A stretch of DNA of 32,000 bases, from contig OY759724.1 of NCBI GenBank assembly GCA_963662715.1, positions 2,670,001-2,702,000 of the forward strand. The letters run 5' to 3'. Positions 1-22,912 of this stretch are shown here, piece by piece. Positions within the stretch are counted from its first letter, which is position 1; each line of letters opens with the position of its first letter. Source of the stretch: Candidatus Omnitrophota bacterium. Lineage in GTDB: Bacteria; Omnitrophota; Gorgyraeia; Zapsychrales; JANLHA01. The translations under genes were made by a program, and so were the position numbers. The notes below the pieces were generated by a model. It did no database searches. It saw nothing but the letters and a program-made list of their open reading frames with translations, and had not been told where the DNA came from.

Positions 1-897
1 GTATCCGTGGGTAATCTGGATGAAAGGCTGGATATTGCGAGAAAGGATGAAATAGGCGAACTTTTTGAGTCATTTAACAGGATGACAGTCAAGTTGAAGG
101 AAGCCAAACATTCTGAGAAGCTTTCCACAATCGGAAAAGCAGCGACGGCTATTGCCCATGAACTCAAGAATTCCTTGGTGATGGTTAATGCCTATATTGA
201 TTTATTGCCGGAACGCCATATGAACCGGAAGTTTATACAAGACTTTTCTAAGAATGTATCCGAGGAGCTCGATTCCTGGAAAGCCATGTTGCAGAATATG
301 ATGGAATATTCCAAGTTTTTTAAGTTTAGAATGGAAAAATTGGACGTCAATGAGTTGATGGTGGATATTAAAAGTCTGGCTTATCAGCGGACCCAGCAGA
401 AAGGCGTTGATTTGATGATGCATGCGGGGTCTTTTATCCCGCCTGTTATCGGTAATGCGGCAAAATTGAAAGAGGTCCTGACGAATTTAATCAATAATGC
501 GGTAGATGCGACCTCTCCGGGAGGAGTGATTACGCTATCGATGGATTTCCTTGAGCAAGCATCAGAGTGGGGCAAACCCCATGTGCGGATTCAGGTCATT
601 GATTCCGGAGAAGGCATAGCGGAAGAAGATATCGATAATATATTTGAACCTTTTTATACAACCAAAGAAAGCGGGCTGGGATTAGGGCTGGCCATCAGCA
701 AAAAGATCATTGAATATCATGGCGGAACCCTTGAAGCCATGAAAGGTCGCTCAAAAGGGGCGGTCTTTACCATTCGGCTTCCGATCCTTAAGAAATTTTA
801 TGAACGCCGAAATCAGCAGGGGAAGGAGGATGGCTTTAAGGCATCTTTGCCCGGCAGGAACCAAAGAGGCGGTTATAAAAACTTTTTGAAACAGTGA
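1..897 (+). CDS. Sensor histidine kinase, 3' portion (end of HAMP - HisKA - HATPase_c); 5' end lies outside the window
   Basis: The frame is open from base 1. HAMP-like DEIGELFESFNRM, H-box IAHELKNSL, N-box NLINNAVDA, G1 DSGEGI, G2 GLGLGLAISKKIIEYHGG. Stop at 895-897. Confidence 0.9.
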   Translation, partial: VSVGNLDERLDIARKDEIGELFESFNRMTVKLKEAKHSEKLSTIGKAATAIAHELKNSLVMVNAYIDLLPERHMNRKFIQDFSKNVSEELDSWKAMLQNMMEYSKFFKFRMEKLDVNELMVDIKSLAYQRTQQKGVDLMMHAGSFIPPVIGNAAKLKEVLTNLINNAVDATSPGGVITLSMDFLEQASEWGKPHVRIQVIDSGEGIAEEDIDNIFEPFYTTKESGLGLGLAISKKIIEYHGGTLEAMKGRSKGAVFTIRLPILKKFYERRNQQGKEDGFKASLPGRNQRGGYKNFLKQ

Positions 898-964
898 AAA
901 GCTTAATTCTAACGTAATTTCCCTTAAAGGCTGTGGCCTGTGAAAGGGAGGAAAGGCTGGGGAT

Positions 965-1672
965 ATGCTTTCAGACAAGATTCTGGTTATTGACGACGAT
1001 CCCAAAATTATCCAGACGATTGATTTGATTTTCCGAGAATACGACATCATTGGTTTTCAGGACGGGAAAAGGGCCATAGAATATCTAAAAAAACCTAATA
1101 ATGTCCTGATCGTTCTGCTTGATGTCTGCATGAAGACGATCAACGGACTGGACGTTCTGCAGGAGATTAAAAGGATCGACAAAAATATTGCCGTTATTAT
1201 GATGACGGCTTTCGGAACCAAGGAAGTCGTGCTTGAAGCCTTGCGGGGGCATGCAGATGACTTCTTGGACAAGCCTTTCCATGTTGATGATTTAAGATAC
1301 AAAGTGAAGATTCATCTTAAAGACCGGATGTTGAAATGTCATGTCGGAGAGAACAGCCGGGTTGAACGGATCAAACGTTATATTGAAAGAAATTCTGACG
1401 TTGTCTCTCTTGAGCATGTCGCGGAAGAGTTGAATTTAAGCCCCCAGTATGTCAGCCGGTTTTTTAGAGAGCACAATATTAAGGGATTCAGGGATTATAA
1501 AATTGAAATTAAGCTCACCCGGGCAAAACATTTGCTTAAAAATACAACTTTCTCCGTAAGCCAGATTGGAGAACAGCTGGGGTATCAGAACCCCGAATCA
1601 TTTATGAGAATTTTTAAGAAGAACACCCAGGTCACCCCTTCGCAATTCAGAGAACGGGCCCTGGATTCTTAG
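965..1672 (+). CDS. Response regulator, receiver domain + AraC/XylS-type HTH output
   Basis: REC motifs: ILVIDDD, LLDVCMKTINGLDVL (acceptor Asp), DFLDKPF. The C-terminal half has AraC-like twin HTH (LSPQYVSRFFRE ... SVSQIGEQLGYQNPESFMRIFKK). Purine-rich gggaggaaagg lies upstream. Confidence 0.88.
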   Translation: MLSDKILVIDDDPKIIQTIDLIFREYDIIGFQDGKRAIEYLKKPNNVLIVLLDVCMKTINGLDVLQEIKRIDKNIAVIMMTAFGTKEVVLEALRGHADDFLDKPFHVDDLRYKVKIHLKDRMLKCHVGENSRVERIKRYIERNSDVVSLEHVAEELNLSPQYVSRFFREHNIKGFRDYKIEIKLTRAKHLLKNTTFSVSQIGEQLGYQNPESFMRIFKKNTQVTPSQFRERALDS

Positions 1673-1935
1673 GCCGTCAGGATTTCCTCCCGGTCCCGAA
1701 TCAGTTTTTCCTCAGGTCATTTGAGGGCAATAACGGATTTTTTGCATTTATTCCCCTGCTGTGAGCATGAATTTTTAGGGGAGTTTAAGAAAAGTCAGTT
1801 TAAAGCCTTCTTGTCCTATTTACATATTTTAAAAACGTATTATAACTATTTTATGAACGCAGCCGTAGGCCGCGGATTAACTTTGTCCTATGAAGGTGAG
1901 AATGATCTATCGTTCCCATATCAAGGAGATGAGAC

Positions 1936-3414
1936 ATGTTGAAACCTATTAAAACGCTTTTAATTGAAGATGACCAGAGCAGTGCGGATCTTATTTCGGA
2001 ATTCCTGCGACAAAATCATTGCCGGGCCTCAGTTTGTCACGTCGGTTCAATCAAGGAGTCGGTCGATTGCCTTAAAAATGAGACGTTTGATGTGATACTG
2101 CTGGATTTGACCCTCCCGGACAGCGAGGGCATGAATACCCTTGATAGCATTACTCGGGTCAACACGGTTCTGCCTATCGTTATTTTAACCGGCCTTAATG
2201 ACGAAAGCCTTGCTGTAGAAATGATCAAAAAGGGAGCCCAGGATTATTTGGTGAAAGGGCAGTTCAACAGTTCATTGCTGATGAGGGTGATTCAATATGC
2301 TATTGAGCGAAAAATTATCGAACAGGCGCTTCGTATTTCCGAGCAGGAATGGAGAAAAACGTTTAATGCCATTTCTGACAGGATCTTTATTCAGGATGAG
2401 GATTTTCGAATAGTAAAAATGAACAAAGCCTTTGCCCAGACCATGAAATTGAACCCGGAAGATATTTTCGGAAAAAAATGCCATGAAGTCCTGCACGGGA
2501 GTGATCAGCCGATACCGCAATGTCCCTGCGTTAAGACCCGCTGCGATGGAATCTCTCACTGTGAAGAAATCCTGGATACGGAAACCGGGCAGTCTTTCCA
2601 GGTCACAACGTCACCGATTATCGAAAATAGTCTTTATAAAGGCGCTGTTCACATCGCCCGGGATATCACATCTCAAAAAAAGACGGACGAAGAATTGAAG
2701 GATATTCAGGCCCAGCTGCTGCAATTGGAGAAGATGGCTGTCCTTGGTCAGATGTCCGCGGGCATAACTCATGAGATTAAGAACCCTTTGTCGACGATTT
2801 TATTAAGTATAGACTGCATCAAAACAAAAATGGGAGGGAAGGACCCTATCCAGATAAAAGAGCTGCTCAATCTTCTGGAAGAGTCGGCTCAGCGTATTAA
2901 TAAAGTCATCAACGAATTATTAAGCTTTGTGCGAACTCCGAATATCAAGGTCCAGAGGGTTAATTTGCACAGGGCGATAGACACGGCTATTTCCCTGCTG
3001 GACAATAAGGCCAGGCACAAGAACGTGATTTGTGAAAAATATTATTCGAAGGAAGATATTGAAATTAATGCCGATAAACTGCTGATAGAACAGGTGTTTT
3101 ATAATCTGCTTTCCAACGCCGTTGATGCCATGGAACCCGGGGGACGCATCAAATTGAGAACAGAATGCCCGGGGATGTCCGGGGGAGAAATGGTTGATGT
3201 CGAAATCTCCGATACCGGATGCGGCATGACAGACGAGGAAATCGTTAAAATTTTTGAACCTTTCTTTACCACCAAGGATTATGGCAAAGGGACGGGGCTT
3301 GGATTAAGTATCGTCAAAATGGTCGTGGAAAAACATAAAGGTTCTATTAACGTGGTCAGTCAAAAAGGTTCCGGCACATCCTTTACTGTCAGCCTTCCGG
3401 TCAGTGCCGGTTAA
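1936..3414 (+). CDS. Hybrid sensor: N-terminal receiver - PAS (Cys/His-rich) - HisKA - HATPase_c histidine kinase
   Basis: REC: TLLIEDDQ, ILLDLTLPDSEGMNTL, DYLVKG. PAS-like WRKTFNAISDRIFIQDEDFRIVKMNKAF. H-box ITHEIKNPLS, N-box NLLSNAVDAM, G1 DTGCGM, G2 GTGLGLSIVKMVVEKHKGSI. RBS aaggag lies before the ATG. Confidence 0.9.
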   Translation: MLKPIKTLLIEDDQSSADLISEFLRQNHCRASVCHVGSIKESVDCLKNETFDVILLDLTLPDSEGMNTLDSITRVNTVLPIVILTGLNDESLAVEMIKKGAQDYLVKGQFNSSLLMRVIQYAIERKIIEQALRISEQEWRKTFNAISDRIFIQDEDFRIVKMNKAFAQTMKLNPEDIFGKKCHEVLHGSDQPIPQCPCVKTRCDGISHCEEILDTETGQSFQVTTSPIIENSLYKGAVHIARDITSQKKTDEELKDIQAQLLQLEKMAVLGQMSAGITHEIKNPLSTILLSIDCIKTKMGGKDPIQIKELLNLLEESAQRINKVINELLSFVRTPNIKVQRVNLHRAIDTAISLLDNKARHKNVICEKYYSKEDIEINADKLLIEQVFYNLLSNAVDAMEPGGRIKLRTECPGMSGGEMVDVEISDTGCGMTDEEIVKIFEPFFTTKDYGKGTGLGLSIVKMVVEKHKGSINVVSQKGSGTSFTVSLPVSAG

Positions 3415-3427
3415 AAAAGGGGAATAT

Positions 3428-3901
3428 ATGCCGTTCAGGAAAATTGTTGTTATTGATGATGAAAAAGATATCTGTCGTCTCATGAGAAGCATTTTAACCG
3501 AACTGGGCGATTATGAAGTCTTTGTCGCTTACAACGGGTCGATGGGGATGGCCCGATGCCTGACAGAGAAACCCGATATCATTTTTCTCGATTATGTTAT
3601 GCCCCAGGAGAAAGGCAGCACGATGATTAAGCTTTTTAAGAGAAATAGGATCACCCAAAATACGCCTATTATTGTCATGAGCGGGTTAGGGGAAGCCATC
3701 ACATTCGAAGAAAAGGAGTCATGGAGTTGGCTGACGGATTATTTGGATAATTTGGACCCCGACCAGGAATTGGATGCGGTTAAAATTCCCGAAGAGATCG
3801 CCCGGTCCCTGGGCATTCGAGTCTACCTGCCTAAGCCGTTTAACAAAGAAGCTATTGCCCTGGCCCTTTCCTATATCCTGACGAAAGATGCCTCCGTATA
3901 G
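3428..3901 (+). CDS. Single-domain response regulator (CheY-like receiver) with an insertion before beta5
   Basis: VVIDDEKD, IIFLDYVMPQEKG, IIVMSG, YLPKPF. I chose the ATG at 3428 (aaaaggggaatat ATG) over the track start at 3404, which overlaps the upstream kinase. About 49 aa separate MSG from KPF, versus about 20 in typical receivers. Confidence 0.8.
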   Translation: MPFRKIVVIDDEKDICRLMRSILTELGDYEVFVAYNGSMGMARCLTEKPDIIFLDYVMPQEKGSTMIKLFKRNRITQNTPIIVMSGLGEAITFEEKESWSWLTDYLDNLDPDQELDAVKIPEEIARSLGIRVYLPKPFNKEAIALALSYILTKDASV

Positions 3902-4171
3902 ATGAATGAGCAAGAAACTGCTTTCCTGCCTCATACATCCTCATAAAAAGTTCCCGTATAAATATTACAGATGTTGACGTTCTTCTTTTAAACTCCCAAG
4001 GTGCTGAAAGTTTTCATTTCCTGGTGATTACCTGCTCGAAAGGTCTTTGTTTTTGATAATCAATCCTAAGAGGCGGAGGCGGCGCTTTTGAATAAAATAC
4101 TTCCTAATTTCTTTGTTATGGTTTAAACTACAATGGGCTTTTGATAACTTAAATTTTTATTAATATTAATA

Positions 4172-4972
4172 ATGAAATATTTCATTTTAATACTATTTAA
4201 TGCATTTTTGCTTTTTATCTTTATATCACAAGGGACTTTTGTCCAGGCGTCCATTCTTTATCAGGATTTTGAGCCTAACAACGGCACGCCGGCGAAACCG
4301 GCCTCTGATTCTCAAGATCCAGAATATGGCTGGGCTTTTAACGAGGCTGATGCGAGATTATCCCTGGATGGAGAACCTGTTCAGGCCGGGCTGTATTCCT
4401 GGCGGGTCGGGATCCCCTTTGCTGAAAAACTTGACTCGGGCAGTGGAATCGCCTCCCAAACCCAGACCTATAATATGAATTTTATCCCGGAATGCTTTGA
4501 TCGTTTAACATTCTGGATCTATTCCGAACCCCTGCATCCCGGGGCGCATACCGTCATGGTTAAATTTTTTGACCACGGAAAATATCATGATGAAGGTGTC
4601 GGGGTCTGGACCGCGGGGAAGGCTGCGCCGAATCAATGGGTTCGGCTGGAAATATTATTTGATCAACTGCCCGCGGACTTTGACCTGGCCCATGTTGACA
4701 AAATTGAGTTTTTTAATTATTGGGACGGCATTTACTATTATGACGACATTCTCATTGCTTCCGCGCAGGGAGAGGGGGAAGATGCGGCTTGCCTGGAGAC
4801 CGAAGGGTATGTCGTTTGTCATGAAGACCCTTTGAGGTCAGACAAGACGAAGAGTCTTTGTGTTTCTGTTTACAGCGGTCATGGCGAACAGTTGACGGAT
4901 TATTCATATATCAAAAGCAAGAAACGGTTAAGGATTTTTGACCGGTTGCAGTCTTCGAAAGAGAAGAATTGA
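4172..4972 (+). CDS. Secreted hypothetical protein, probable galactose-binding/CBM-like beta-sandwich
   Basis: Signal peptide MKYFILILFNAFLLFIFISQGTFVQA. The pattern W..NEADARLS ... LTFWIYS ... NQWVRLEILFDQLP ... VDKIEFFNYWDGIYYYDDILI resembles CBM11/CIA30-like sandwich domains. The upstream region is very AT-rich. The fold call is tentative. Confidence 0.7.
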   Translation: MKYFILILFNAFLLFIFISQGTFVQASILYQDFEPNNGTPAKPASDSQDPEYGWAFNEADARLSLDGEPVQAGLYSWRVGIPFAEKLDSGSGIASQTQTYNMNFIPECFDRLTFWIYSEPLHPGAHTVMVKFFDHGKYHDEGVGVWTAGKAAPNQWVRLEILFDQLPADFDLAHVDKIEFFNYWDGIYYYDDILIASAQGEGEDAACLETEGYVVCHEDPLRSDKTKSLCVSVYSGHGEQLTDYSYIKSKKRLRIFDRLQSSKEKN

Positions 4973-4990
4973 AAAGGGGACGAGTGGCCC

Positions 4991-5596
4991 ATGGATGAAC
5001 AGGTCCTGTTGGAAAATTGCCTGGAGGGGAATAAAGCAGGGTGGGATGAATTCATGGAGAAATATTCCCCGCTCATTTACGACTCCATCTTAAGAACGTT
5101 CCGCCGCTTTAATTACCAGGCTACACACGAGATGCTGGCTGACGTTCATCATGATTTCATCGTTTATCTGCTGGAGAATGATCATAAGATTTTAGGAGGT
5201 TTTGAAGGCCGCAATGGATGCCGATTTAAGCATTATCTGAGAACGGTTGTGATCCGTAAAACCATTGATTTCTTGAGAAAGTCCAAGCAGGGCGGGCGTC
5301 CCCAGCGGGTGATGAGCATCAATTCGCAGAATGAGGCGGCCGTGCATCAGGCCCTCCCGATCACGTCTTTTGAGCAGGATATTGATACCCGGTTAATTCT
5401 GCAGGCCGCGAATGAGATTTTTGATGAATTAAACAGCAACGAAAAAGATTTATGGCGGATGTTCTTTTCAGAAGAAATGAATCCTAAGGATATTGCTTTT
5501 CATCTGGGGATATCGGTTGACTGCTTCTATGTCCGAAAACAAAGATTATTAAGGAAACTCAAGACTTTAGCCGCGCGTAAGAATTTAACCTTTTAA
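4991..5596 (+). CDS. ECF-type (group 4) sigma-70 family sigma factor
   Basis: Region 2-like WDEFMEKYSPLIYDSILRTF ... ADVHHDFIVYLLEN ... FKHYLRTVVIRKTIDFLRK. Region 4.2 HTH MNPKDIAFHLGISVDCFYVRKQRLLRKLK. Starts 18 nt after the upstream gene. Confidence 0.85.
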   Translation: MDEQVLLENCLEGNKAGWDEFMEKYSPLIYDSILRTFRRFNYQATHEMLADVHHDFIVYLLENDHKILGGFEGRNGCRFKHYLRTVVIRKTIDFLRKSKQGGRPQRVMSINSQNEAAVHQALPITSFEQDIDTRLILQAANEIFDELNSNEKDLWRMFFSEEMNPKDIAFHLGISVDCFYVRKQRLLRKLKTLAARKNLTF

Positions 5597-5612
5597 TGTT
5601 GCGCATTGCCGG

Positions 5613-6296
5613 GTGACAACGCATATGATCAATAATAATGAGCCTCAAAACGGAGCAGAGCTCACGGATGAGATGCTGACGAGTTACGTTGAAGGCCTTC
5701 TGCCTGATGCCGACCGACAGCGGGTCGAACGTTTTATCTCTCAAAATGTCTTCCTGCATGAGGAGGTGGAGGCTTTAAAGTCCGTTTATCAGGCCCAGCA
5801 GGCCGAGGGACTTAATGTGGTCCCTGATGACATAACGGAAAGGACACAGAAGATACTCGGGGAATATTTTCAGACGGATGTCCTGAAAATTGTCGTATCA
5901 TGGGCGGACAATATATTCAGAGTTATCAAGAGCACCGGAGTCCTTCTCGTGGACCCTCAGGCTGCGGTTAAGCATGCTTTGCGGGACTCCGTGGCCAAGA
6001 GGAATGCCGCCGCTGTTCTGCAGAAGGATTTTCATAGGGCCCGGCTGATTGTCGAACTGTTCCCCCAGGGGGATGCCGCCATGACAGCGACAGTTATCCT
6101 TAAGAATTTTCAGGGACAGCTTGTCCAGACAATTCTGCGGATCACTTTGAAAGATCCTCAGGGAGAGCTGGAATCCCAGGATGTCAGTTCGGGGTACGCT
6201 GAGTTTGCGAATATCAAACCAGGAGAGTATCAGATCGATATCGCAGATTCCGGTCGTCGCATTGGAATGATATCGCTACAAATAAACCATTTATGA
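5613..6296 (+). CDS. Putative anti-sigma factor-like protein (no TM, no zinc ligands) with C-terminal beta-sandwich-like region
   Basis: It sits immediately downstream of the ECF sigma gene. The N-terminus LTDEMLTSYVEGLLPDADRQRVERFISQNVFLHEEVEAL follows the anti-sigma-domain helix pattern but lacks the H-x3-C-x2-C residues. The C-terminus (TLKDPQGELESQDVSSGYAEFANIKPGEYQIDIADSG) resembles carboxypeptidase-regulatory/Ig-like folds. An alternative ATG start lies at 5625. Confidence 0.6.
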   Translation: MTTHMINNNEPQNGAELTDEMLTSYVEGLLPDADRQRVERFISQNVFLHEEVEALKSVYQAQQAEGLNVVPDDITERTQKILGEYFQTDVLKIVVSWADNIFRVIKSTGVLLVDPQAAVKHALRDSVAKRNAAAVLQKDFHRARLIVELFPQGDAAMTATVILKNFQGQLVQTILRITLKDPQGELESQDVSSGYAEFANIKPGEYQIDIADSGRRIGMISLQINHL

Positions 6297-8398
6297 TGGC
6301 AAGTTCTACTTTTATATTGGAAGTTATTATTGCTCGGAAGGCTCTGGCCATGAGTCTTTATGAACGCGATTCCACCATGCGTCATTTTGATGAGGTCCTT
6401 CCCAATCAGCTGGTTATTGAACATTTATGTGCGGAAGCGATCCGTCTTATGAACAAGACGAATGTCTTAGGTCCGGCATCCGTAGGGTTATCATTCGAGT
6501 TGAAGAAAATAGGGCGTGCTCTTTTTGACCAATTGTTGAGTGAAACAGTCAAGGTCAAGTTGATCGACTCTCCGGTAGAGAACCTGATCTTTCTTATGGA
6601 TGAGGCTTTAATCCCCATCCCTTGGGAATTGTTGCATAACGGTCAGCAGTTCCTCTGTCTGCAATACAATGTGGGCCGCTCGGTCCGTACAAAGCGCCCT
6701 TCCTCGAAAACCGCCGAAAGAACCAGCTCATCGCCGATAAAAATGCTTGTCATGGCCGATCCCATCGGGGATCTGGATGAGGCCCGGGCGGAGGCGTTTA
6801 ATATCCGTCAGGAGACAGACCAGAAAAAACATTTTTTTTCTGTGACGACGAAGTTAAAGAAAATAACAGTTGATTATGTCATCAAAAATTTGCAGGACTA
6901 CGATATTGTTCATTTTGCCGGTCATAATGAATTTGACTACCAGAATCCCCTGAACAGCGGGTGGAAATTTTCCGACGGTCTATTCCGGGTTGAGGACGTT
7001 ATTAAAATGAAGGGCGGGGCTGCTATGCCGCTGCTGATATTCTCCAACGCCTGTCAATCGGCGGTTTTATTGCGTGGGCAAAAAGTCATCGGAGAAACAG
7101 GCCGGATATTTTATGGCATTGCGAATGCCTTTTTGCTGGCCGGAGTGAAGCATTTTCTGGGAACGTTATGGGAAATCCCGGATCAGGTTGCGGCTGTTTT
7201 TTCCCGCGAGTTTTATGCGCAGATCTGTGAGGGCATGCCGATCGGGACGGCGATAAGAGAAGCGCGTTTAAAGATTATCCGGGTCTTTGGAGAAGATACG
7301 GTCATCTGGTCCTCCTATGTTTTATATGGGGACCCTTCGGCCCCGGTTGTTTCTCCGGAAATGCTGGCAGCGCCGTCAGGGGAATCGGCTCCGGTTTTTA
7401 CTCCGGTCTCGAAACAGATAGCCATATATGTCGGGATAGGATTGTTCACGCTTTTGGCGTTGGCCGTCTTGGAGAATGTCTCGCGACAAAGATCCCGGCA
7501 GTCTCTTATCCCGGACGTGAATGCCGTATCAGCACAAAAAAAGGTCGAGAAAAAACAGCCCAAAACATCTCCCCAAAAGAAAGACGTCACGCAGGAGGAT
7601 ATTCATGCTGTTTTCTGGCCCCCGGCGGAAAAAATTAATCAGATAATTCATGATCTTAATCTTGACCTCGGCAAGGTTGAGGATCCCAAGGTCCTTTACG
7701 AGTATTATCGTCTTTTGATAGATTCCTATGCCATGGTGAATCAATATCGTCTGGCAACGCTTTATACGGAAGCTGTCATAGAATTGGCTAAGGCTCAGGA
7801 CGATAAAGATGTTTTGGTCGAGGCGTATCTGGAGTGCGCCGATGTCCTGCTGGAAGAATTTGTGTATTTCCGGCTTCCTATCGAATCAGTTGAGGAAAGA
7901 GGCAAGTTCGGGGATGCCGTCAGTAAACAGATTTTAACGAGGATAACAGGCTATTATCAGGAGGGCATGTCCCTGACGGTCGGGAAAGAAAATGTCCGGC
8001 AGCTTCTCCGGGCTTATCAGGGATTAGGAAGAGTCTATAAATATCACGACGACAACAAATCGGCGATTGCTTTTTACGAGAAAGCCGTAGAGATACTTGA
8101 ACAAAGTCCCCAGCTGCCCCGCAGCGAAGTGTATCAGCTGGCCTATGATTATGTGGAGTTAGCCACTCTTTATCTGGAGGAACATAAGGCTTTTGACAGG
8201 GCCCTTGTATATTTAAGCCGTATGGTCAGGCAAATGAATGGCATCTCTCCCACGTCTTTGGAGGACCATGTCATTTTAAAACCCGTTATCCGGAAATTTG
8301 ATCTGCTGCTCCGCGATCTTCATCAAAAAGGCTTGTCATCCACGCAGTTTTATCCTAAGGCTATGCAGTTATACCGGAATCTGAACACAAAACGGTAA
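6293..8398 (+). CDS. CHAT-domain (caspase-fold) protease - single TM - basic linker - TPR-like helical repeats
   Basis: CHAT motifs: IPWELLH, IVHFAGH (His211, nt 6923-6925), LLIFSNACQSA (Cys254, nt 7052-7054), FLLAGVKHFLGTLWEIPD, WSSYVLYGDP. Hydrophobic span IAIYVGIGLFTLLALAVLENV. C-terminal TPR-like AIAFYEKAVEIL / LATLYLEEHKAFDRALVYL. The ATG overlaps the upstream stop (ATGA at 6293-6296). Confidence 0.85.
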   Translation: MMASSTFILEVIIARKALAMSLYERDSTMRHFDEVLPNQLVIEHLCAEAIRLMNKTNVLGPASVGLSFELKKIGRALFDQLLSETVKVKLIDSPVENLIFLMDEALIPIPWELLHNGQQFLCLQYNVGRSVRTKRPSSKTAERTSSSPIKMLVMADPIGDLDEARAEAFNIRQETDQKKHFFSVTTKLKKITVDYVIKNLQDYDIVHFAGHNEFDYQNPLNSGWKFSDGLFRVEDVIKMKGGAAMPLLIFSNACQSAVLLRGQKVIGETGRIFYGIANAFLLAGVKHFLGTLWEIPDQVAAVFSREFYAQICEGMPIGTAIREARLKIIRVFGEDTVIWSSYVLYGDPSAPVVSPEMLAAPSGESAPVFTPVSKQIAIYVGIGLFTLLALAVLENVSRQRSRQSLIPDVNAVSAQKKVEKKQPKTSPQKKDVTQEDIHAVFWPPAEKINQIIHDLNLDLGKVEDPKVLYEYYRLLIDSYAMVNQYRLATLYTEAVIELAKAQDDKDVLVEAYLECADVLLEEFVYFRLPIESVEERGKFGDAVSKQILTRITGYYQEGMSLTVGKENVRQLLRAYQGLGRVYKYHDDNKSAIAFYEKAVEILEQSPQLPRSEVYQLAYDYVELATLYLEEHKAFDRALVYLSRMVRQMNGISPTSLEDHVILKPVIRKFDLLLRDLHQKGLSSTQFYPKAMQLYRNLNTKR

Positions 8399-8489
8399 TA
8401 TTTGTTGTGCAGCATTAAAACAGGAAGATCCAGCGTGGGGGGCAGAAGAATTTTTCCCGGGACCAACAGATGCAGAAATGATTTAATGT

Positions 8490-9089
8490 GTGAATTCTAT
8501 GACGGAAGCGATCAGCAGCCTACAAACACTGCAAAATTCCATTGTTTATGACTTTTATACTTCCTGCTGGTTTCATAATCTGTTATCCCAGCCGGCCGTG
8601 AAGGAATGCTTTGCCCGGCGTGCCCCGGAAACAACGGAAGCATATCAGAGGTACCGGAAAATATCTCAAGTGACCCAGCTTCCGCTTCTTGGTGTCTGTC
8701 TGTCCCTGATACTGGTTTTTATAAGTCGTCATTATGCTTTTTTGGTCATAAGCTGCGGGTTTTTGCTGCTTTATTTCAGGTTTGTGAGAAATCAACGGCA
8801 GATTCTGGCCCGTTTGTCATCTGTTTTGCTCCGGCAGGAATTTGCAGTAGCTGATTTTTCCGGGAGAACCCTGTACGAAATTACCGAACACCTGGGCCGT
8901 CAATATGGCATCCCGTCGATGGTGGACACTATATACAGATCGGACAATATCTTAAGAAGATTATTTTTGCTGGGGTTTTTTCTGCCTTGGCCGGATTTTG
9001 GCAGGAGCGTTCTGATTTTTTTTGTTGTTTATTTTTCCTGCAAATATTTGCTGAATTCGCGGATCGGCTATCGCATCTTGGCCGGATAG
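8490..9089 (+). CDS. Hypothetical polytopic membrane protein
   Basis: Two hydrophobic hairpins: LPLLGVCLSLILVFISRHYAFLVISCGFLLLYF and LFLLGFFLPWPDFGRSVLIFFVVYFSCKYLL. Same strand as the CHAT gene, 91 nt downstream. I recognise no family. GTG at 8490 or ATG at 8499. Confidence 0.55.
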   Translation: MNSMTEAISSLQTLQNSIVYDFYTSCWFHNLLSQPAVKECFARRAPETTEAYQRYRKISQVTQLPLLGVCLSLILVFISRHYAFLVISCGFLLLYFRFVRNQRQILARLSSVLLRQEFAVADFSGRTLYEITEHLGRQYGIPSMVDTIYRSDNILRRLFLLGFFLPWPDFGRSVLIFFVVYFSCKYLLNSRIGYRILAG

Positions 9090-9120: not shown

Positions 9121-11088
9121 TCAGAAAAGATAAGCGCCCCAGAAGGAAAGGATAAGGACAAACAGAATCGCGAGTCCCCATTTGCATGTTGTGAAAAGAA
9201 AAGCAAAGAATATGACCGGATGCAGAATGCTTATGGAGGCGTGAGTGAAATGTTTGGTCTGAAATACGGGCCAGTAGCAGGAGAAGTTCCGCCAGTTCAG
9301 GCTGAGCATCCGCTCTTGTTGCAGCATATCTTTATACAATTGGGTTCCTGGCAGAGGCGTCAGAAGAGAGACAGCGGTCCAGTCCGGAAAAATACGGAAA
9401 CAACACAGCCAATATTTGAAGATGTTTTTTATCCTGTCTGAATCAAAGCCGATGATGAAATGTCCTTCAATATGTATTCCCGCCTTTTTAATCCTTTTCG
9501 TATATTCAATAAACTTGTCTGCCAGGGCGAACTTCCCTCCTTGAGACTTTTCCAGGGAAGCGCTGGTGATTTCATACCCGATCAGCAGCCCCTGACAGCC
9601 GCTTTCTTTAGCCAATTTCAGCAGGGGTTCGTTGCCTCCGATATCGATACTACAGTTGGCAATCCATTTCATTTTTAACGGTTTCAGGGCCGTGAACAAT
9701 TGTTTGGCATAGGCCGGGTCAGAATAAATGTTGTTGTCAATAAAGCTGACGGTCGTGTATTTGGTCCTTACTCTTTCAAGTATTCTGACGACCTGTTCCA
9801 CCGTCCTGTGCCCGAACCGGCCTTGGCACAGAGCGGAAATGCAGCAAAAGGAACAGTGGAACTTACAGCCATAACTCGCTTCCAGATAATAACGGATAAT
9901 ATCCGGGGAGGCGTTCAGAAGTTCATTGTAAATCCTGTCGCGGACAGCTTGCGAGGCCGCGCCGCCCTGATACATTTTTTTGAGGGAATTGTTTTCATGA
10001 TCCCGAACAACCTCTTCCCAGACACTTTCAACCTCTCCGACCACCACGGCATCGCAGAATTCCAAAGCTTCATGGGGGACAAAAGACACATGAGGCCCGC
10101 CCATGATGACAGTAGAGCCTTTTTGGCGAAAGCCTTTGGCGATACGGTAGGCTTCAAAGCAGTTGCTGGTAAAGCAGGTGATCGCCACCAATTTCCCGGG
10201 GCGGAAGTAAGACGACTGCCAGAAAACTCTTGAAAAGCTGCGGACGGAATAATTCTTAGGCGTTAAGGCCGAAAGCACGACGAACACCGGCGGATAAAAT
10301 CGCAGAAAGATAGAGGTTAAGACTTCGATGACAGAGCCTCCTCCCAGGGGATTGATAAGAAAAAGCTCTTTCTCCGGAGGAGGATTCCGGCTGAAGTAGT
10401 CCGTTTTTGAAAAAAACAAAAGGCAGAGATAAACGAATAGAAAAAGGTGCGTATATTTTACGATAAATATGAGGCTTAAAGTCAGAAGGGCATGTATTTG
10501 CGGTTCTTGTTTTAACAACACGGCACAAGAGATGTTGATAAGGATAATCAGCAGAATCTGGACGACTGTCTTCAGAGGTAGCGGAAGGCTTAAAAGCTTG
10601 CCGGGAGATGTTTTAAGGAAATATCTCGCAATAATGAGCAGGGTTAAAAATATGAGGCAAACGGGCTCCAAAAAAACAGTCCAGTAGGCGTAATCCATGC
10701 GCGGGAGGAAGACAAAGGAACAAAACTGTATGCCTAGAAGGAAAATTTGAAAAAAGGTGAAAAGAAGCCAGGTGCGCTTGATTTGTTCTATGATCAAAGG
10801 TCTGGATACGAGATATTCTTTCCCGGAGCACAGCACGGCAAAACAGCCGTATATCCCTGAGTAAATGATGATTTTTAAAGGCAGTAAGCTCAGGAATATG
10901 AAAGGGAAGAGAGACTTGAAAATGCCGGCAGGCAGGAGGATGCTGATGGACGGGATCTCCAGTAAAAGAATAAGGAAGACGGCGGACATCAGGGAATGAA
11001 GAATATTCCAAGTGTCTTTTAACGGATGTTCAGCTGAATTCATGATCAAAAGAATCCGAAGGCGGCAGATATCTGTCCCCGGGTTCAT
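9121..11088 (-). CDS. B12-binding-domain radical SAM enzyme fused to an N-terminal polytopic membrane domain (about 6 TM) and a C-terminal hydrophobic tail
   Basis: Radical SAM motif YGCKFHCSFC (C408-x3-C412-x2-C415, nt 9844-9867). B12-binding-like KLVAITCFTSNCFEAYRIAKGFRQKGSTVIMGGPHVSF. aa ~30-228 form successive hydrophobic helices. C-terminus ILHPVIFFAFLFTTCKWGLAILFVLILSFWGAYLF. An alternative start is Met16 (nt 11043). Confidence 0.85.
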   Translation of the reverse strand: MNPGTDICRLRILLIMNSAEHPLKDTWNILHSLMSAVFLILLLEIPSISILLPAGIFKSLFPFIFLSLLPLKIIIYSGIYGCFAVLCSGKEYLVSRPLIIEQIKRTWLLFTFFQIFLLGIQFCSFVFLPRMDYAYWTVFLEPVCLIFLTLLIIARYFLKTSPGKLLSLPLPLKTVVQILLIILINISCAVLLKQEPQIHALLTLSLIFIVKYTHLFLFVYLCLLFFSKTDYFSRNPPPEKELFLINPLGGGSVIEVLTSIFLRFYPPVFVVLSALTPKNYSVRSFSRVFWQSSYFRPGKLVAITCFTSNCFEAYRIAKGFRQKGSTVIMGGPHVSFVPHEALEFCDAVVVGEVESVWEEVVRDHENNSLKKMYQGGAASQAVRDRIYNELLNASPDIIRYYLEASYGCKFHCSFCCISALCQGRFGHRTVEQVVRILERVRTKYTTVSFIDNNIYSDPAYAKQLFTALKPLKMKWIANCSIDIGGNEPLLKLAKESGCQGLLIGYEITSASLEKSQGGKFALADKFIEYTKRIKKAGIHIEGHFIIGFDSDRIKNIFKYWLCCFRIFPDWTAVSLLTPLPGTQLYKDMLQQERMLSLNWRNFSCYWPVFQTKHFTHASISILHPVIFFAFLFTTCKWGLAILFVLILSFWGAYLF

Positions 11089-15782: not shown

Positions 15783-15910
15783 AATGTCTTAAAAGGAAAA
15801 AGAGGAATTTTACTATCACTTTATGAAAAAGTATGGTAAAAACATGTGAGTTGGAATGATTCTTTTGGGAAAGCCCCCTGATTTTATTGTAGAGAGGGGA
15901 GAGGTTGATT

Positions 15911-16657
15911 ATGACTCGGCAATTAAATATATTAATCGTGGACGATGAAGAAGCGATCCGCACGTTACTTGTCCGTTTTTTGTCGAAGATGCATAAGACG
16001 TTCGGGGCCGCAACCGGTGAAGAAGCCGTGGAACTTGCTCAGCAACGTCGTTTTGATGTGGCTTTTGTTGATATGCGAATGCCTGGCATGGATGGCTTGG
16101 ACACTTTACGCGCCTTAAAAACCATTTGTCCGGATACCTGTATTGTCATTATTACCGGCTATGCTGAAGATGAGCGTCTGACCGCTGCGTTGCGGGAGGG
16201 GGCGATTACCTGTCTTAAAAAGCCGTTCCGTATTGATGAAATAAGAAATATCATTGATCAAAACGTCCAGAGTCTGGGCGGCGCTCCCCTGAAAATCCTT
16301 GTTGTCGATGATGACGAAATTTTCCGCAAGTTGTTTATGAAACTGGATGAAGATGATAAATACGCGGTTACGGCTGTAGCTAAAGCCAGTGACGCTCTGG
16401 CGGCTCTTAAAGCGGAGAAATTTGACATCTGTTTTATTGACATTATTCTTCCGGGGGTCAGCGGCTTTCAGCTGTATGATGAATGCCGGGTTTTGTCTCC
16501 GGAAACCAAGGTCGTTTTGTTCACCGGTTCAGACGAGAAGTTTTCGGCTATTCAGTCAAAAAAGGAAGACGGCGTTGATTATTCACTTAAAAAGCCTTTC
16601 AATTTGGATGACGTTGTTCATATCATCGATATGATTGAGGAAAAACATCTGTCTTAA
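15911..16657 (+). CDS. Response regulator with two tandem receiver domains and no output domain
   Basis: REC1: ILIVDDEEAIR, VAFVDMRMPGMDGLDTL, CLKKPF. REC2: ILVVDDDEIFR, ICFIDIILPGVSGFQL, SLKKPF. ATG at 15911 follows ggggagagg. Confidence 0.85.
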   Translation: MTRQLNILIVDDEEAIRTLLVRFLSKMHKTFGAATGEEAVELAQQRRFDVAFVDMRMPGMDGLDTLRALKTICPDTCIVIITGYAEDERLTAALREGAITCLKKPFRIDEIRNIIDQNVQSLGGAPLKILVVDDDEIFRKLFMKLDEDDKYAVTAVAKASDALAALKAEKFDICFIDIILPGVSGFQLYDECRVLSPETKVVLFTGSDEKFSAIQSKKEDGVDYSLKKPFNLDDVVHIIDMIEEKHLS

Positions 16658-16756
16658 GAGGTGCAAGCTATCTGTTGCGCCCCTCCTTCTGCTCCCGCAT
16701 TCGAGTTTTAAAAAACATCTTTTTTAATGAAATGCCCGTTTCCTGGCGGGAAAATT

Positions 16757-16793
16757 AAATTGTTGTCCGATAATATTTTTATTGTTACAATTT
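16757..16793. repeat. Inverted repeat AAATTGT-N23-ACAATTT with an internal ATTGTT direct repeat (possible operator/UAS)
   Basis: 16757-16763 AAATTGT is the reverse complement of 16787-16793 ACAATTT. ATTGTT occurs at 16759-16764 and 16781-16786. Located just upstream of the sigma54-like element. Confidence 0.3.
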
Positions 16794-16805
16794 CGGTAAA
16801 CAGCC

Positions 16806-16821
16806 TGGCAGGTAGGCTGCA
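16806..16821 (+). promoter_or_regulatory. Candidate sigma54 (-24/-12) promoter TGGCAG-N5-CTGCA
   Basis: TGGCAGGTAGGCTGCA has correct GG-N10-GC spacing and lies 45 nt upstream of the TamB-like ATG. No enhancer-binding protein is encoded in the window, and the site overlaps a CAGCCT/AGGCTG hairpin. Confidence 0.25.
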
Positions 16822-16865
16822 GGGGCTGTTCTCAGACATCCGCAAGAAAGGGCATCGTCTCAATT

Positions 16866-18155
16866 ATGAAGAAGACATTCATAGTCATTTTTAGGTTGCT
16901 GTTCTTCTTGGCTGTCCTGGCCCTGATCGGCGCGGTTTATGCGTTGTGGGCAACGACGCCGGGAGCTAAATTTGTAACAGATGTTTCTTTATCTTCGTAT
17001 TTAAGCGAGGAACAGCTCCGGATTGACGATATTTCGGGCAATTTTAAAGAAAGAGTGGTGTACTCAGATATAGAAATAAAAAATCTGCCCTATCTCCCGG
17101 AGGGAACATTATTTAAAGTGAAGGAATTAAGCCTTTCCGTAACGTCGCTGGACTGGGATGGGGTGACGATGTTGCTGGAGCAGGCCCGGATTTTTCTTCC
17201 TCTGTCTGACCCTCTGTTTGTGCAGGGGCGCATTCTTTACGGGGTTTTGGATTTCAATATTTACGCCAGTTATATCACATTAAGGGATGTTCAGAGTTTT
17301 TCCCCGCAGAACCGTTATTTGAAATCTCTGGACGGAGATTTTCAGGATATTGATATTTATGTCTCGAATAAGATATTGGAGCCTTTTATTAAAGGAGAAA
17401 TCCGTATCGAAAAATTAACCAATGATACCATCCAGCTCCTTAAAAGCAAGCTGGATTTTATCCTGGAATTAAAAGATGTCACGACGCCCAAGCCGTTATT
17501 ATATGGTGTTGTGAAAGTCAATGAGGGGACGTTATCGGCCCGGAAAACAGCTGTTCTTCAGCTGGAAGACAGCAGTATACGCTTTGAGGGGGACATGGAA
17601 AATCCTTCTTTAAATGTCAGAGGACGGTCTGTTGTTGACGGAGTTAAAATCCGGGTGCATTGTTCCGGTACGCTGCAGAAGCCGGAGCTGTCGTTTTCGT
17701 CCACCCCTCCTTTACCGGAGCAGCAATTGCTGGTGATGCTCGCTACGGGGAAAGCATGGACAGGGGCCACGGCAGATTTGACCAGCGGACAGATTACCAC
17801 TGAGACGGCCAAAGATTTTCTGGATTATTTTTTGCTGGGGGGCGCAGGCGGTCGGTTAGCGGAAACGCTGGGGATAAAAGAGTTTAAAGTGATTTTTGAG
17901 AAGGAGACCAAAGGGCTTGGGGTGACAAAATCCCTATCCGATAACGTGGACGCGAGTTATACTGTGGAACAGTCAAAAGAGTCTTTGGGGGAAGAGACAT
18001 TGACGCAAAAAATAGGCGGAGAACTCCACCTGAATGAGAAGGTCTCTGTGGGCGCCGAGCGGGAGATCCTGGACGAGAGATATCCTGACCGGGAGACCGC
18101 GGGGGATGTCGAGAAACGGGATACTTTTTTCATGAAGTTTGAAACGAATTTTTAA
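16866..18155 (+). CDS. Short TamB/DUF490-like translocation-and-assembly-module protein with N-terminal membrane anchor
   Basis: Anchor FIVIFRLLFFLAVLALIGAVYALWA. The C-terminal core VRGRSVVDGVKIRVHCSGTLQKPELSFSSTPPLPEQQLLVMLATGKAW resembles the conserved DUF490 segment of TamB. At 429 aa it is far shorter than canonical TamB. Confidence 0.6.
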   Translation: MKKTFIVIFRLLFFLAVLALIGAVYALWATTPGAKFVTDVSLSSYLSEEQLRIDDISGNFKERVVYSDIEIKNLPYLPEGTLFKVKELSLSVTSLDWDGVTMLLEQARIFLPLSDPLFVQGRILYGVLDFNIYASYITLRDVQSFSPQNRYLKSLDGDFQDIDIYVSNKILEPFIKGEIRIEKLTNDTIQLLKSKLDFILELKDVTTPKPLLYGVVKVNEGTLSARKTAVLQLEDSSIRFEGDMENPSLNVRGRSVVDGVKIRVHCSGTLQKPELSFSSTPPLPEQQLLVMLATGKAWTGATADLTSGQITTETAKDFLDYFLLGGAGGRLAETLGIKEFKVIFEKETKGLGVTKSLSDNVDASYTVEQSKESLGEETLTQKIGGELHLNEKVSVGAEREILDERYPDRETAGDVEKRDTFFMKFETNF

Positions 18156-18239
18156 TGCTGTATTCTGTCTGCGCGCTTCCCCGGGGGACTGCCCGGGTAT
18201 TTCAGTCGAAATTTTTGCCAGCCATGAAAATCCGGCGCC

Positions 18240-18656
18240 TCAGCTTTTTCCCGGCATTTCCTGGATGAGTTTGTTGATGCGCAAAATCATTCCCTGCCCG
18301 AAATCATTTTTCCGTAAATGGAGTGGCTTCTTTTCTTTATTGGAAATAATATTATCCAGTTCCTGCAGGATCCTTTCATAGGAACCAAAGGTGCGGTGCA
18401 CAAAGCTAAAGACGAAACGGGCAAACAGGATATAGTAAAATAAAATCAGGGCCGAAAATATAAGAACCCGGTCCATGAAATGCTGGCTGAGATCTGTATG
18501 AATGTAGGTGTAAATAAGATCGCTGAATAAGCCCCAGAAAAGAAAAAAGATCAGGATGACAGGCAAAGCCGCAAATAAGAAAATCATTTTTAGGACCTTC
18601 CTTTCATAAGGATTTTTGTTGAGGATGTTTCTTTGTGATGTTTTCTCATTATTCAT
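18240..18656 (-). CDS. Small two-TM protein with HAMP-like C-terminal segment (hypothetical)
   Basis: ATG at 18656 is preceded by GGGAGG plus 5 nt on the minus strand; the track start at 18674 is a TTG. TMs MIFLFAALPVILIFFLFWGLF and VLIFSALILFYYILFARFVFSF. HAMP-like YERILQELDNI ... RKNDFGQGMILRINKLIQEM. Confidence 0.5.
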   Translation of the reverse strand: MNNEKTSQRNILNKNPYERKVLKMIFLFAALPVILIFFLFWGLFSDLIYTYIHTDLSQHFMDRVLIFSALILFYYILFARFVFSFVHRTFGSYERILQELDNIISNKEKKPLHLRKNDFGQGMILRINKLIQEMPGKS

Positions 18657-18686
18657 AAGTTCCTCCCTGTCCAATGAATTGCTATC

Positions 18687-19085
18687 TTAAAGAGTTCTCT
18701 CTTCAATCATTTTGCCCCCGGATAGAATCCTGTAGGTAACTCCGGAATTTTCTTCAGACACCGGTTCGGCTGAAATTGTGTACTGGTCAGCCGAAATGTC
18801 GCAGGTGAACCGAAACCCGTGATGTGTCCCTTTGAAATAAGCGTCTATACGGTAAGGGTATTCTTCAATCATTAATTGTTTGAGGTTGCGCGGGTAGAAG
18901 CCGTTTTCCTCCCGATACTTTTCCAGCGCGTCAGAAATTTTCCGCAGAACGGATTGCGCCAGAACATCGTGAGTGGCTGTTTGAACTTCACTGATGATCT
19001 GATACGTTAAGATTGCCAAAAGGATAACAAGAATGGAAAAAAGAATCAGTTTAACACGGTCTAAATTTGAATCGATGATGTTCAT
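18687..19085 (-). CDS. Membrane-anchored pseudopilin/GspG-fold-like protein lacking a prepilin cleavage motif (hypothetical)
   Basis: Internal ATG at 19085 gives MNIIDSNLDRVKLILFSILVILLAILTYQII (TM). VLRKISDALEKYREENGFYPRNLKQL resembles the alpha1-C/beta-sheet junction of type II secretion pseudopilins. There is no G/FTLIE motif. Confidence 0.5.
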   Translation of the reverse strand: MNIIDSNLDRVKLILFSILVILLAILTYQIISEVQTATHDVLAQSVLRKISDALEKYREENGFYPRNLKQLMIEEYPYRIDAYFKGTHHGFRFTCDISADQYTISAEPVSEENSGVTYRILSGGKMIEERTL

Positions 19086-19247
19086 GGGGCTTCCCCGGGA
19101 AAAAGTGGCTTTCTTATATCTTAATAAAAAGAGGAAGTATTTTCTATGATAATGATATAAAAATTGTCTCAATTCCATGTATAATAAAAAAAGGGAATAA
19201 GCGTTGAACTTTTATCCCGGAGCCTGAATAAGGGAGAGGTGTGCTTG

Positions 19248-20312
19248 GTGAAACAAGTCTCGAGAAGGGAGTTCTTGCAGAGGTGTCTGTTCTGGATCTC
19301 TTCCGGATTAATTCTTGCTGTGCCGGGCTTAATATCGATTGTTCAGGGTCAAAAGAGAAGGCCGAAGTCCATGCAACCCCATCTTTCCGAACCAGGGTAT
19401 CTTAAGCTGCACCGGCAAGGACAACTGACTGAACGGGCGCAGACATTGTGGAATATGATGGGACGTTGCGAACTCTGTCCCCGGCGCTGTCATAAAAACC
19501 GTCTGAAGGGAGAAACAGGATTTTGCGGAGCTGCAAAGGATCTTGTTATTGCGTCTCATGGGCCGCATTTTGGCGAGGAAAAGCCGTTGGTCGGCCGCGG
19601 GGGATCAGGCACGATCTTTTTTTCTCATTGCAGTCTGCGGTGTGTGTTTTGTATCAATTGGGACATCAGCCATCTCGGGAAAGGGACGGTCAGGGGCATC
19701 AATGATCTTGCTTATATGATGATGGATCTGCAACAGCAGGGATGCCATAATATCAATCTCGTGACGCCCACGCATTATGTCCCGCACATCCTTTTAGCCG
19801 TGGATAAGGCGGCGGGGTATGGCCTGCATTTGCCTTTGGTTTATAATACCTGTGGCTGGGAACGCCTTGAGATCCTGGAATTCCTGGATGGGGTCATAGA
19901 TGTCTATCTCCCGGATTATAAGTATGCGTCTTCGGCCATGTCAGAAAAGTATTCGGCAGGCGCTTCTTCCTATCCTTTCGTCGCTCAAAAAGCTCTTCTG
20001 CAGATGTACCGGCAGGTCGGCACGGCCCGGGTGGAGGCTGATGGACTCGTTAAAAAAGGGCTTATGATCCGGCATCTTGTCATGCCGGACCATGTTGGCG
20101 GCACGAAAGATGTCATTCAATGGATTGCGTCTCATTTGCCCAAAGACACGTATTTCAACCTTATGTCGCAGTATCATCCTTATCATAAAGCTTTTGACTA
20201 CCCGGAGATCGCAAGAACTATTACGCCGCAGGAGTACCGGGAGTCCATCCAATGGGTGAAGGAGTCTGGTTTAACGCGTGTGGATTTCCAAAGAATGCCT
20301 TTGGGCGGTTAA
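19248..20312 (+). CDS. Radical SAM protein of the PflX (COG1313, PFL-activase-like) type with Tat-like N-terminal signal/anchor
   Basis: GSGTIFFSHCSLRCVFCINWDIS (C-x3-C-x2-C, nt 19629-19652). Upstream Cys cluster CELCPRRC...FCG. N-terminus SRREFLQ plus hydrophobic CLFWISSGLILAVPGLISIV. The GTG at 19248 follows gggagagg; the track start is 19239, and an internal ATG at 19371 is also possible. Confidence 0.85.
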   Translation: MKQVSRREFLQRCLFWISSGLILAVPGLISIVQGQKRRPKSMQPHLSEPGYLKLHRQGQLTERAQTLWNMMGRCELCPRRCHKNRLKGETGFCGAAKDLVIASHGPHFGEEKPLVGRGGSGTIFFSHCSLRCVFCINWDISHLGKGTVRGINDLAYMMMDLQQQGCHNINLVTPTHYVPHILLAVDKAAGYGLHLPLVYNTCGWERLEILEFLDGVIDVYLPDYKYASSAMSEKYSAGASSYPFVAQKALLQMYRQVGTARVEADGLVKKGLMIRHLVMPDHVGGTKDVIQWIASHLPKDTYFNLMSQYHPYHKAFDYPEIARTITPQEYRESIQWVKESGLTRVDFQRMPLGG

Positions 20313-20418
20313 GGGGACCTTATAGCGGGGAGGCCCCCAGGGGCTGTCTCCGAGAAAAAAAAGAAATTGCTAGTTATGAAGAGAGAATTCTGTTAATTTA
20401 ACTCAAAGTGGAGGTCAT

Positions 20419-20580: not shown

Positions 20581-20607
20581 GTTGTTTAAGAAACATCTTT
20601 AGTCCGT

Positions 20608-22089: not shown

Positions 22090-22148
22090 GAAAGAAGGAC
22101 GACAGAAGGCTGTATCCCGGATTTTGTGTAAAATATATGAGTATTGAG

Positions 22149-22906: not shown

Positions 22907-22912
22907 GGATTC

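Follow-up and report, generated by a model that had tools for sequence, protein, structure and literature searches.

The window analysed here is a stretch of 32,000 nucleotides of Candidatus Omnitrophota bacterium DNA (assembly GCA_963662715.1, contig OY759724.1, positions 2,670,001 to 2,702,000, forward strand). It carries a cassette in which a divergent sigma factor of the extracytoplasmic function (ECF) type, a predicted soluble anti-sigma factor (X) and a CHAT protease with a predicted transmembrane (TM) segment and TPR-like tail are encoded side by side. Unless preceded by a locus number (L), coordinates are those of the window. Five open reading frames (ORFs) had been proposed in a first-pass annotation of the sequence, and all five were present in the ORF listing at the same coordinates, as follows:

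4172..4972, plus strand: p1, secreted protein of 266 aa, the first operon gene in Omnitrophota cassettes
4991..5596, plus strand: sigma, a divergent ECF-like factor of the sigma-70 family (sigma2 + sigma4), 201 aa
5613..6296, plus strand: X, predicted soluble anti-sigma factor, 227 aa
6293..8398, plus strand: CHAT-TM-TPR, predicted bitopic membrane CHAT protease
8490..9089, plus strand: gene 5, membrane protein of 199 aa without family match

The junctions, read directly from the sequence, were also as annotated: 18 nt between p1 and sigma (4972/4991), 16 nt between sigma and X (5596/5613), an ATGA at 6293-6296 through which the CHAT start overlaps the X stop codon, and 91 nt between CHAT and gene 5 (8398/8490). 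The start of X is ambiguous (GTG at 5613 or ATG at 5625, the latter being the start of the database protein P0129). Transcription of p1, sigma, X and CHAT as one operon is the best explanation of this layout. The conserved core consists of sigma, X and CHAT-TM-TPR, preceded by p1 in Omnitrophota, and the unit is smaller than the five-gene module first proposed: the core is conserved, and gene 5 is merely a syntenic neighbour.

Conservation of the cassette was assessed by scanning a single genome for each GTDB species, with the sigma motifs LIYDSI[IL]RT and EGRNGC as seeds. The scan returned 35 loci, which were annotated with purpose-built hidden Markov models (HMMs) of sigma, X, CHAT and p1; three of the 35 contigs (L019, L026, L045) stop before CHAT could appear. 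Sigma, X and CHAT adjoin one another in at least 18 of the 35 loci, from Omnitrophota, Desulfobacterota (L032, L048), Nitrospirota (L038), Myxococcota (L024, L025, with a divergent CHAT) and unclassified metagenome-assembled genomes (MAGs; L027, L029, L047). The close homologs of the window CHAT and sigma all come from Candidatus Omnitrophota MAGs, and the order p1 - sigma - X - CHAT is found in L001, L003 and L010-L014. These loci prove little by themselves, because they are globally syntenic with the window; the sigma - X - CHAT triad also stands between wholly different flanking genes in L005/L006, L007 (Ca. Gygaella obscura) and L009.

The association was also recovered from the protease side. 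When four proteins of the CHAT subfamily were picked regardless of sigma, X adjoined CHAT in all four loci and sigma lay upstream in three; the fourth (L051), which carries a tandem pair of CHAT genes, breaks off at X. A 4-nt overlap between X and CHAT is common across cassette loci. Pairwise distances of sigma, X and CHAT were correlated over 21 loci (r = 0.85-0.91, Mantel p <= 0.0005), which fits inheritance as a unit, with a contribution from the shared species phylogeny. The proposal of the first-pass annotation that a sigma/anti-sigma pair is wired to a CHAT protease is thus borne out by the occurrence of the triad in unrelated neighbourhoods of several phyla, and homologs of the pair do not generally occur apart from CHAT, given the counts from both seeds.

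The sigma factor passes the TIGR02937 model (61.4 bits against a cut-off of 42.9, residues 18-192). The Pfam r2 (E 0.034) and r4 matches of the window protein are sub-threshold; among nine family members, Sigma70_r2 was matched in six, r4_2 in five and r3 in none. Its domain matches place it as a divergent member of the ECF class (group 4), with a predicted two-domain sigma2 + sigma4 architecture and neither sigma3 nor sigma1.1. The signature motifs of the family alignment are LIYDSI[IL]RTF and FEGRNGC. Two cysteines are invariant in the family (C10 and C77, one of them within FEGRNGC) and the linker between sigma2 and sigma4 is unusually long; metal binding, redox chemistry or contact with the anti-sigma factor are possible roles of these cysteines. 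Special kinship to the sigma factor of type III-E CRISPR loci (CASP-sigma) was considered and rejected. The corresponding model NF041236 scored 40.2 on the window protein against a cut-off of 100, and was ranked second only since this sigma diverges from everything; in the relatives L022 and L029 it is ranked 13th-17th at the same ~40 bits.

The X family was collected by searching 1.84 billion representatives exhaustively with phmmer (E<=1e-3). The 134 matches comprise ~125 full-length proteins or clusters (50% identity) of 206-266 aa, and X can be described from them as a compact, distinct family with members of ~220 aa. A word-indexed search with X recovered only X itself, and the X alignment contains no stretch conserved enough to seed a genome scan. 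The following features were assigned to X:

5661-5867, plus strand: N-terminal domain assigned to the class-I anti-sigma domains, zinc ligands lost in the window copy
5982..5984, plus strand: codon of Arg124, the sole invariant residue of the X family
6012-6293, plus strand: C-terminal beta-sandwich, predicted to be immunoglobulin (Ig)-like

Alone, the window X gave weak zf-HC2 and anti-sigma matches (E 0.03-0.06). A profile of 85 members matched solved anti-sigma domains: RslA (3hug_B, 1.8e-5), RsiW (1.4e-4), DdvA (8rlz, 3.4e-4), ChrR and RsrA. The N-terminal consensus of the 85-member alignment (C...E..A.Y.EG.L...E.....HL..C..C.E) is the CHCC/ZAS anti-sigma motif, and its H-x3-C-x2-C part is present in 66 of the 85 members; the window copy is, to judge from its residues, a non-zinc member of this ZAS-derived family. 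No hydrophobic span was detected in the window copy or in six homologs (weak 1.6-level peaks in two). The anti-sigma-like N-terminus without a hydrophobic span that had been read from the window ORF therefore agrees with both the class-I profile matches and the lack of a TM segment.

The AlphaFold2 model of X, built with the family alignment, was confident (predicted local distance difference test, pLDDT, 88) and is that of a compact, soluble two-domain protein: helices at residues 19-26, 32-44, 46-64 and 72-85, a small beta element at 89-113 and an Ig-like sandwich at 134-226. The only internal segment of low confidence is residues 115-133. Arg124, invariant in 85 of 85 sequences among neighbouring columns of low information, sits within this floppy internal loop, outside the anti-sigma domain; it belongs to a motif (A/V)-L-R-(S/G/A), followed by an unconserved loop of 9-10 residues. 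This is the placement to expect of a P1 Arg in an exposed, cleavable loop. We propose R124 as the P1 residue of a putative CHAT cleavage site; the analogies are separase, metacaspases and gingipain, which are Arg-specific, and the cleavage of the Csx30 loop (PMC10028731, PMC11506125). The matches of the model in a Foldseek search against the PDB were all to generic domains (Ig, FN3, macroglobulin) and all had E > 1e-3; none was Csx30-like. On the strength of that fold search, X was ruled out as a Csx30 homolog.

The protease itself carries a full-length CHAT domain (PF12770: 139.8 bits against a cut-off of 24, E 1.6e-40, residues 72-347, profile positions 2-289 of 289) and the following features:

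6458-7372, plus strand: CHAT domain, N-terminal in the 6293..8398 product
6923-6925, plus strand: His211, motif HFAGH
7052-7054, plus strand: Cys254, motif FxNACQS
~7415-7477 (residues ~375-395), plus strand: single hydrophobic span, predicted TM

The C-terminus consists of a K-rich linker and a TPR-like helical tail (weak TPR match at 567-604). The His/Cys dyad, TM and TPR-like tail reported earlier were all found: H211 and C254 at the positions given, one span and the weak TPR match. Both catalytic residues are invariant in the 17 cassette CHAT proteins compared, the domains of which are 37-61% identical to that of the window, with ~37 invariant positions. All 17 proteins lack a signal peptide and have one strong hydrophobic helix 10-40 residues past the domain and a C-terminal TPR region. 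The cassette CHAT profile is remote from the solved CHAT proteins: SAVED-CHAT is the best match (8tl0, 3.7e-5), followed by DdvA (1e-3) and Csx29 (~0.015).

Many relatives carry a class III nucleotide cyclase domain ahead of CHAT and, C-terminal to the TM and TPR region, CsgG/LpoB-like domains of periplasmic type. Cyclases require cytoplasmic ATP. We place the CHAT domain probably in the cytoplasm, and the TPR tail outside it, because there is no signal peptide, the one TM follows the domain, the K/R bias around the TM favours this orientation in 12 of the 17 proteins and the cyclase is N-terminal.

The p1 product begins with a hydrophobic, signal-like segment ending VQA|S, as expected from the signal peptide previously assigned to this ORF. 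Its domain of ~180 aa contains the motifs YQDFEPxNGT and EFFNYWDGxYYYDDI and conserved Cys residues. p1 is 42-61% identical to homologs upstream of sigma (L002, L003, L005, L010, L014, L016, L017, L019, L021) and is far better conserved than X. Searches of p1 against Pfam, NCBIfam and the PDB gave no match, and its single-sequence AlphaFold2 model was poor (pLDDT 50) and unusable; a relationship to CBM_11 was dismissed (hhalign probability 1.4%, no Pfam or PDB match). From its sequence, p1 apparently represents a secreted domain family not described before. The p1 domain recurs as a tandem pair in giant Laminin_G_3 proteins, the genes of which follow CHAT directly (L005:7414-11835, L016:5840-10081, L021:4611-7373), and p1 is a candidate extracytoplasmic partner or output of the cassette.

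Outside Omnitrophota, the place just upstream of sigma is almost always taken by a protein of ~690 aa with TPR, Glucodextran_B (Ig-like) and CsgG/LpoB-like parts, the gene of which sometimes overlaps sigma (L049:1786-3822, L050:2121-4235, L052:2605-4659, L047:2005-4074, L048:5875-7938). This protein is likely to be the functional counterpart of p1. Further recurrent neighbours in these lineages are FadL-type outer-membrane proteins and giant surface proteins (2296 and 4493 aa). Since envelope and surface proteins recur in this way, the biology of the cassette looks envelope- or surface-related.

Upstream of p1 lies a further conserved feature, which may be an operator or promoter of the operon:

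4078..4135, plus strand: promoter-like element, conserved block of ~50 nt with invariant columns (window, L003, L010, L014, L002)

In the window this element contains the near-palindrome TGGTTTAAACTA at 4119-4130, with the pattern T(A/G)GTTTAAACTA; four relatives (L003, L010, L014, L002) have a perfect 12-bp palindrome, TAGTTTAAACTA, and the window has one copy. A generic scan for sigma-70 promoters and terminators gave counts below expectation.

Gene 5 had been counted as a component of the module. Its HMM gave no match at any other cassette locus, and this claim was abandoned. Its homologs occur only among close syntenic relatives of the window, where a gene of 210 aa (42% identity) lies ~3 kb and three genes past CHAT, after a CBM_11, a CorA and a 303-aa gene. 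Gene 5 is thus a neighbour and not a component, because the window lost the genes that intervene in these relatives. It is followed on the minus strand (9121-11088) by a B12-binding radical SAM enzyme with a polytopic membrane N-terminal half (~300 aa), which is always convergent with gene 5 in the syntenic Omnitrophota relatives; the two form a conserved pair, unrelated to the sigma cassette. The flanks of the window (1-3901 and 15905-29574) hold signalling genes around the cassette. Upstream is a two-component cluster, composed of a histidine kinase, a response regulator (RR) of RR-AraC type, an RR-PAS-histidine kinase and a stand-alone RR; downstream are spermidine synthase-like polyamine genes, a SET-domain protein, a DUF1848 protein, a TamB-like protein and a cheR/cheB/cheA chemotaxis operon. 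Neither CRISPR or defence genes nor Rfam matches were found in the window.

The reading that we favour, and to which we would give an even chance, is a stand-alone, CRISPR-independent proteolytic sigma switch in which CHAT cuts X and frees sigma. The N-terminal helical domain of X would sequester the divergent ECF-like sigma in the cytoplasm, and the CHAT protein would act as a single-pass receptor-protease of the membrane, with the caspase-fold domain inside and the TPR tail turned toward the envelope. The TPR tail would sense a cue from outside the cytoplasm, possibly through p1 (or, in other phyla, through CsgG/LpoB-like lipoproteins), and the cue would activate CHAT, which would cut the exposed loop of X after the invariant Arg124. 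The clipped X would be destabilised and sigma released to transcribe its regulon, which would probably include the large surface proteins encoded beside the cassette. By analogy, the switch is supported by type III-E CRISPR, in which Csx29 cleaves a flexible loop of Csx30 and so frees CASP-sigma (PMC10028731).

Other proteases accompany sigma and X in loci where CHAT is missing, which also speaks for such a switch. In L023 and L028 a matrixin (M10) metalloprotease lies near sigma and X, and in L022 (Ca. Scalindua rubra, L022:3970-10955) a fusion protein joins an anti-sigma domain to an HtrA/DegP serine protease, and a TPR protein of 1228 aa comes next. L022 had been considered as a Craspase locus, and was set aside as it encodes this fusion and TPR protein instead. 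The most distant relatives of sigma, in Binatia, are accompanied by ordinary membrane anti-sigma factors. Together with L002, described below, these loci suggest that control by a protease is the rule in this sigma/anti-sigma lineage, that CHAT is the most frequent partner, and that CHAT may act beyond X.

Several observations weigh against the switch as described. Locus L002 (L002:9144-12115) has p1 and, after a 20-nt gap, an intact CHAT, with sigma and X cleanly absent; therefore CHAT has, or can have, a sigma-independent role, possibly beyond X, and a functional link between p1 and CHAT independent of sigma is implied. CHAT was not detected in L023 and L028 although sigma and X are there. 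The window X reads ERFISQNVFLHEE at the H-x3-C-x2-C position and has no Cys ligands. In the clade of the window itself the K/R bias runs the other way (0-2 before the TM, 3-4 after it), so the topology is less secure for the window protein. The invariant Arg could be a structural or binding residue instead of a cleavage site, and the link between CHAT and X is one that we infer from gene context. At the level of transcription, the element upstream of p1 is retained in L002, and is therefore probably not the promoter of the cassette's own sigma; a search of 38 intergenic regions for a shared bipartite ECF-type promoter motif gave nothing above shuffled sequences.

One alternative, which we consider unlikely, takes CHAT for an output. 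X would be a conventional anti-sigma factor, inactivated by another cue, such as thiol or zinc chemistry at the ZAS motif, or by partner switching, and CHAT and p1 would be co-transcribed outputs of the regulon, acting on other substrates. Retention of the redox-type H-x3-C-x2-C in 66 of 85 X members favours this, as does L002 with p1 and CHAT alone, and a sigma factor's own targets are common in ECF operons (PMC7826278). Against it, the window X clade keeps the cassette despite the lost zinc ligands; the coupling of X and CHAT is tight, often translational, across phyla; the one residue of X that never varies, an Arg, lies in a flexible loop and not in the anti-sigma domain; and different protease classes replace CHAT beside sigma and X.

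We regard as rather improbable a second alternative, a split membrane anti-sigma factor, in which CHAT-TM-TPR would dock the X-sigma complex through the Ig-like domain of X and release would follow from conformational change or autoprocessing, as in a two-polypeptide version of DdvA. The single chain of DdvA combines an anti-sigma domain, a TM and TPR-CHAT, with a dyad described as resting and without a demonstrated substrate (PMC11506125), and the X and CHAT profiles both match DdvA chains. The domain order and predicted sidedness of the cassette protein are unlike those of DdvA, since its CHAT domain stands before the TM and probably in the cytoplasm; the strict conservation across phyla of the His/Cys dyad and of ~35 other CHAT positions argues for catalysis.

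An anti-phage or abortive-infection module like Craspase, in which infection would trigger CHAT and sigma would switch on defence genes, is very unlikely: the characterised CHAT/sigma circuits are all defence-linked (PMC10028731, PMC11506125, bioRxiv 10.1101/2023.06.23.546230), and L007 has ThsB-TIR, HTH and LexA/IMS genes at its flanks and L009 has Fic/RhuM, but PADLOC gave no match beyond weak BovA and TPR, the window is free of cas genes and CRISPR, the cassette was not found on any viral contig, the recurrent neighbours are p1, CsgG/LpoB-like, FadL and giant adhesin-like proteins of the envelope and surface, and the window context is one of two-component, chemotaxis and polyamine genes.

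The proteolytic sigma switch has relatives among known systems, and the statement of the first-pass annotation that no ECF/anti-sigma pair controlled by a CHAT protease had been characterised does not hold. Precedents are Csx29/Csx30/CASP-sigma (PMC10028731) and DdvA/DdvS (PMC11506125), and CHAT neighbours of ECF54 (PMC8999054) as well as EACC2 caspase/ECF neighbourhoods (PMC8195603) had already been flagged. In type III-E CRISPR, the ECF-like CASP-sigma is inhibited by Csx30, which is the target of the TPR-CHAT protease Csx29 (PMC10028731). As in the cassette, a CHAT protease gene there stands beside an ECF-like sigma and a soluble inhibitor, and Craspase cuts a flexible loop in the C-terminal part of the inhibitor (PMC10028731), the logic that we propose here. 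The differences are considerable: in Csx29, which is soluble, the TPR part precedes CHAT, whereas the cassette protein is CHAT-TM-TPR and predicted to be membrane-anchored; X (ZAS-type plus Ig-like) has no sequence or fold match to Csx30; and the trigger of Craspase is target RNA, presumably replaced here by an envelope signal. No cas domains or Cas7-11 were found among the window ORFs scanned or the called genes of related loci, and the Csx29 model NF041237 missed the window CHAT (15.3 vs 300).

DdvA of Myxococcus xanthus is a structurally solved anti-sigma factor with its own periplasmic TPR-CHAT domain (PMC11506125). It shares with the cassette an ECF sigma under a CHCC-type zinc anti-sigma domain (ASD) tied to a membrane TPR-CHAT module, and the match of the X profile falls on its N-terminal domain. 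DdvA is one polypeptide, ASD-TM-(scaffold)-TPR-CHAT, with CHAT in the periplasm and RseP-type intramembrane proteolysis proposed (PMC11506125), whereas here the anti-sigma factor is separate and predicted to be soluble, and the CHAT protein lacks an ASD and has CHAT before the TM, predicted to be cytoplasmic. DdvA-like fusions were reported only from Myxococcota and one Comamonas; the cassette occurs in at least four named lineages.

Proteases and sigma factors are also coupled in CalpL/CalpT/CalpS and SAVED-CHAT/PCaspase/PCc-sigma, systems linked to type III CRISPR or CBASS, in which a signal-activated protease likewise cleaves an anti-sigma-like partner or a sigma factor and reprogrammes transcription (bioRxiv 10.1101/2023.06.23.546230). 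Their proteases are soluble, activated by cyclic oligoadenylate via SAVED and encoded in defence loci, whereas the window protein has neither SAVED nor a sensor of nucleotide second messengers. With regulated intramembrane proteolysis (RseA/DegS/RseP, RsiW/PrsW/RasP), the proposed switch shares the sequence of events: envelope signal, proteolysis of a class-I anti-sigma factor, release of an ECF sigma. Site-1/site-2 cleavage cannot apply to X, because X has no TM; the membrane-spanning element would here be the protease itself, with transmembrane signal transfer within one caspase-fold protein. ECF54 is actinobacterial and described without an anti-sigma factor (PMC7826278), unlike the cassette family with its dedicated anti-sigma factor X. 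This arrangement was not described in the full-text literature searched, which lies apart from the subscription literature and the ECF Hub. As predicted from domain content, the cassette falls outside the Craspase and DdvA types: it is stand-alone, with a separate soluble ZAS-plus-Ig anti-sigma factor and a membrane-spanning receptor protease, and is widespread across phyla.

CHAT protease-gated sigma release has so far been shown only in CRISPR/defence loci, and the cassette would carry it over into ordinary envelope signalling, in several poorly studied phyla. It would do so with a compact system of three proteins: a receptor-protease, a cleavable anti-sigma factor and an orthogonal sigma. 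The cleavage site predicted in X, (A/V)-L-R|S/G, is precise and testable. More tentatively, such loci may represent widespread, CRISPR-independent, one-protein transmembrane caspase-like receptor-proteases that cut a dedicated soluble anti-sigma factor after an invariant Arg in response to envelope signals, replacing the two-protease cascade of regulated intramembrane proteolysis, and possibly including the cellular ancestor of the Craspase Csx29/Csx30/sigma module. If true, the switch would be a new mode of regulation of ECF-type sigma factors and a possible switch for synthetic biology, and it would give a first functional hypothesis for the unannotated X family and for hundreds of proteins annotated as 'class 3 adenylate cyclase/CHAT/TPR'.

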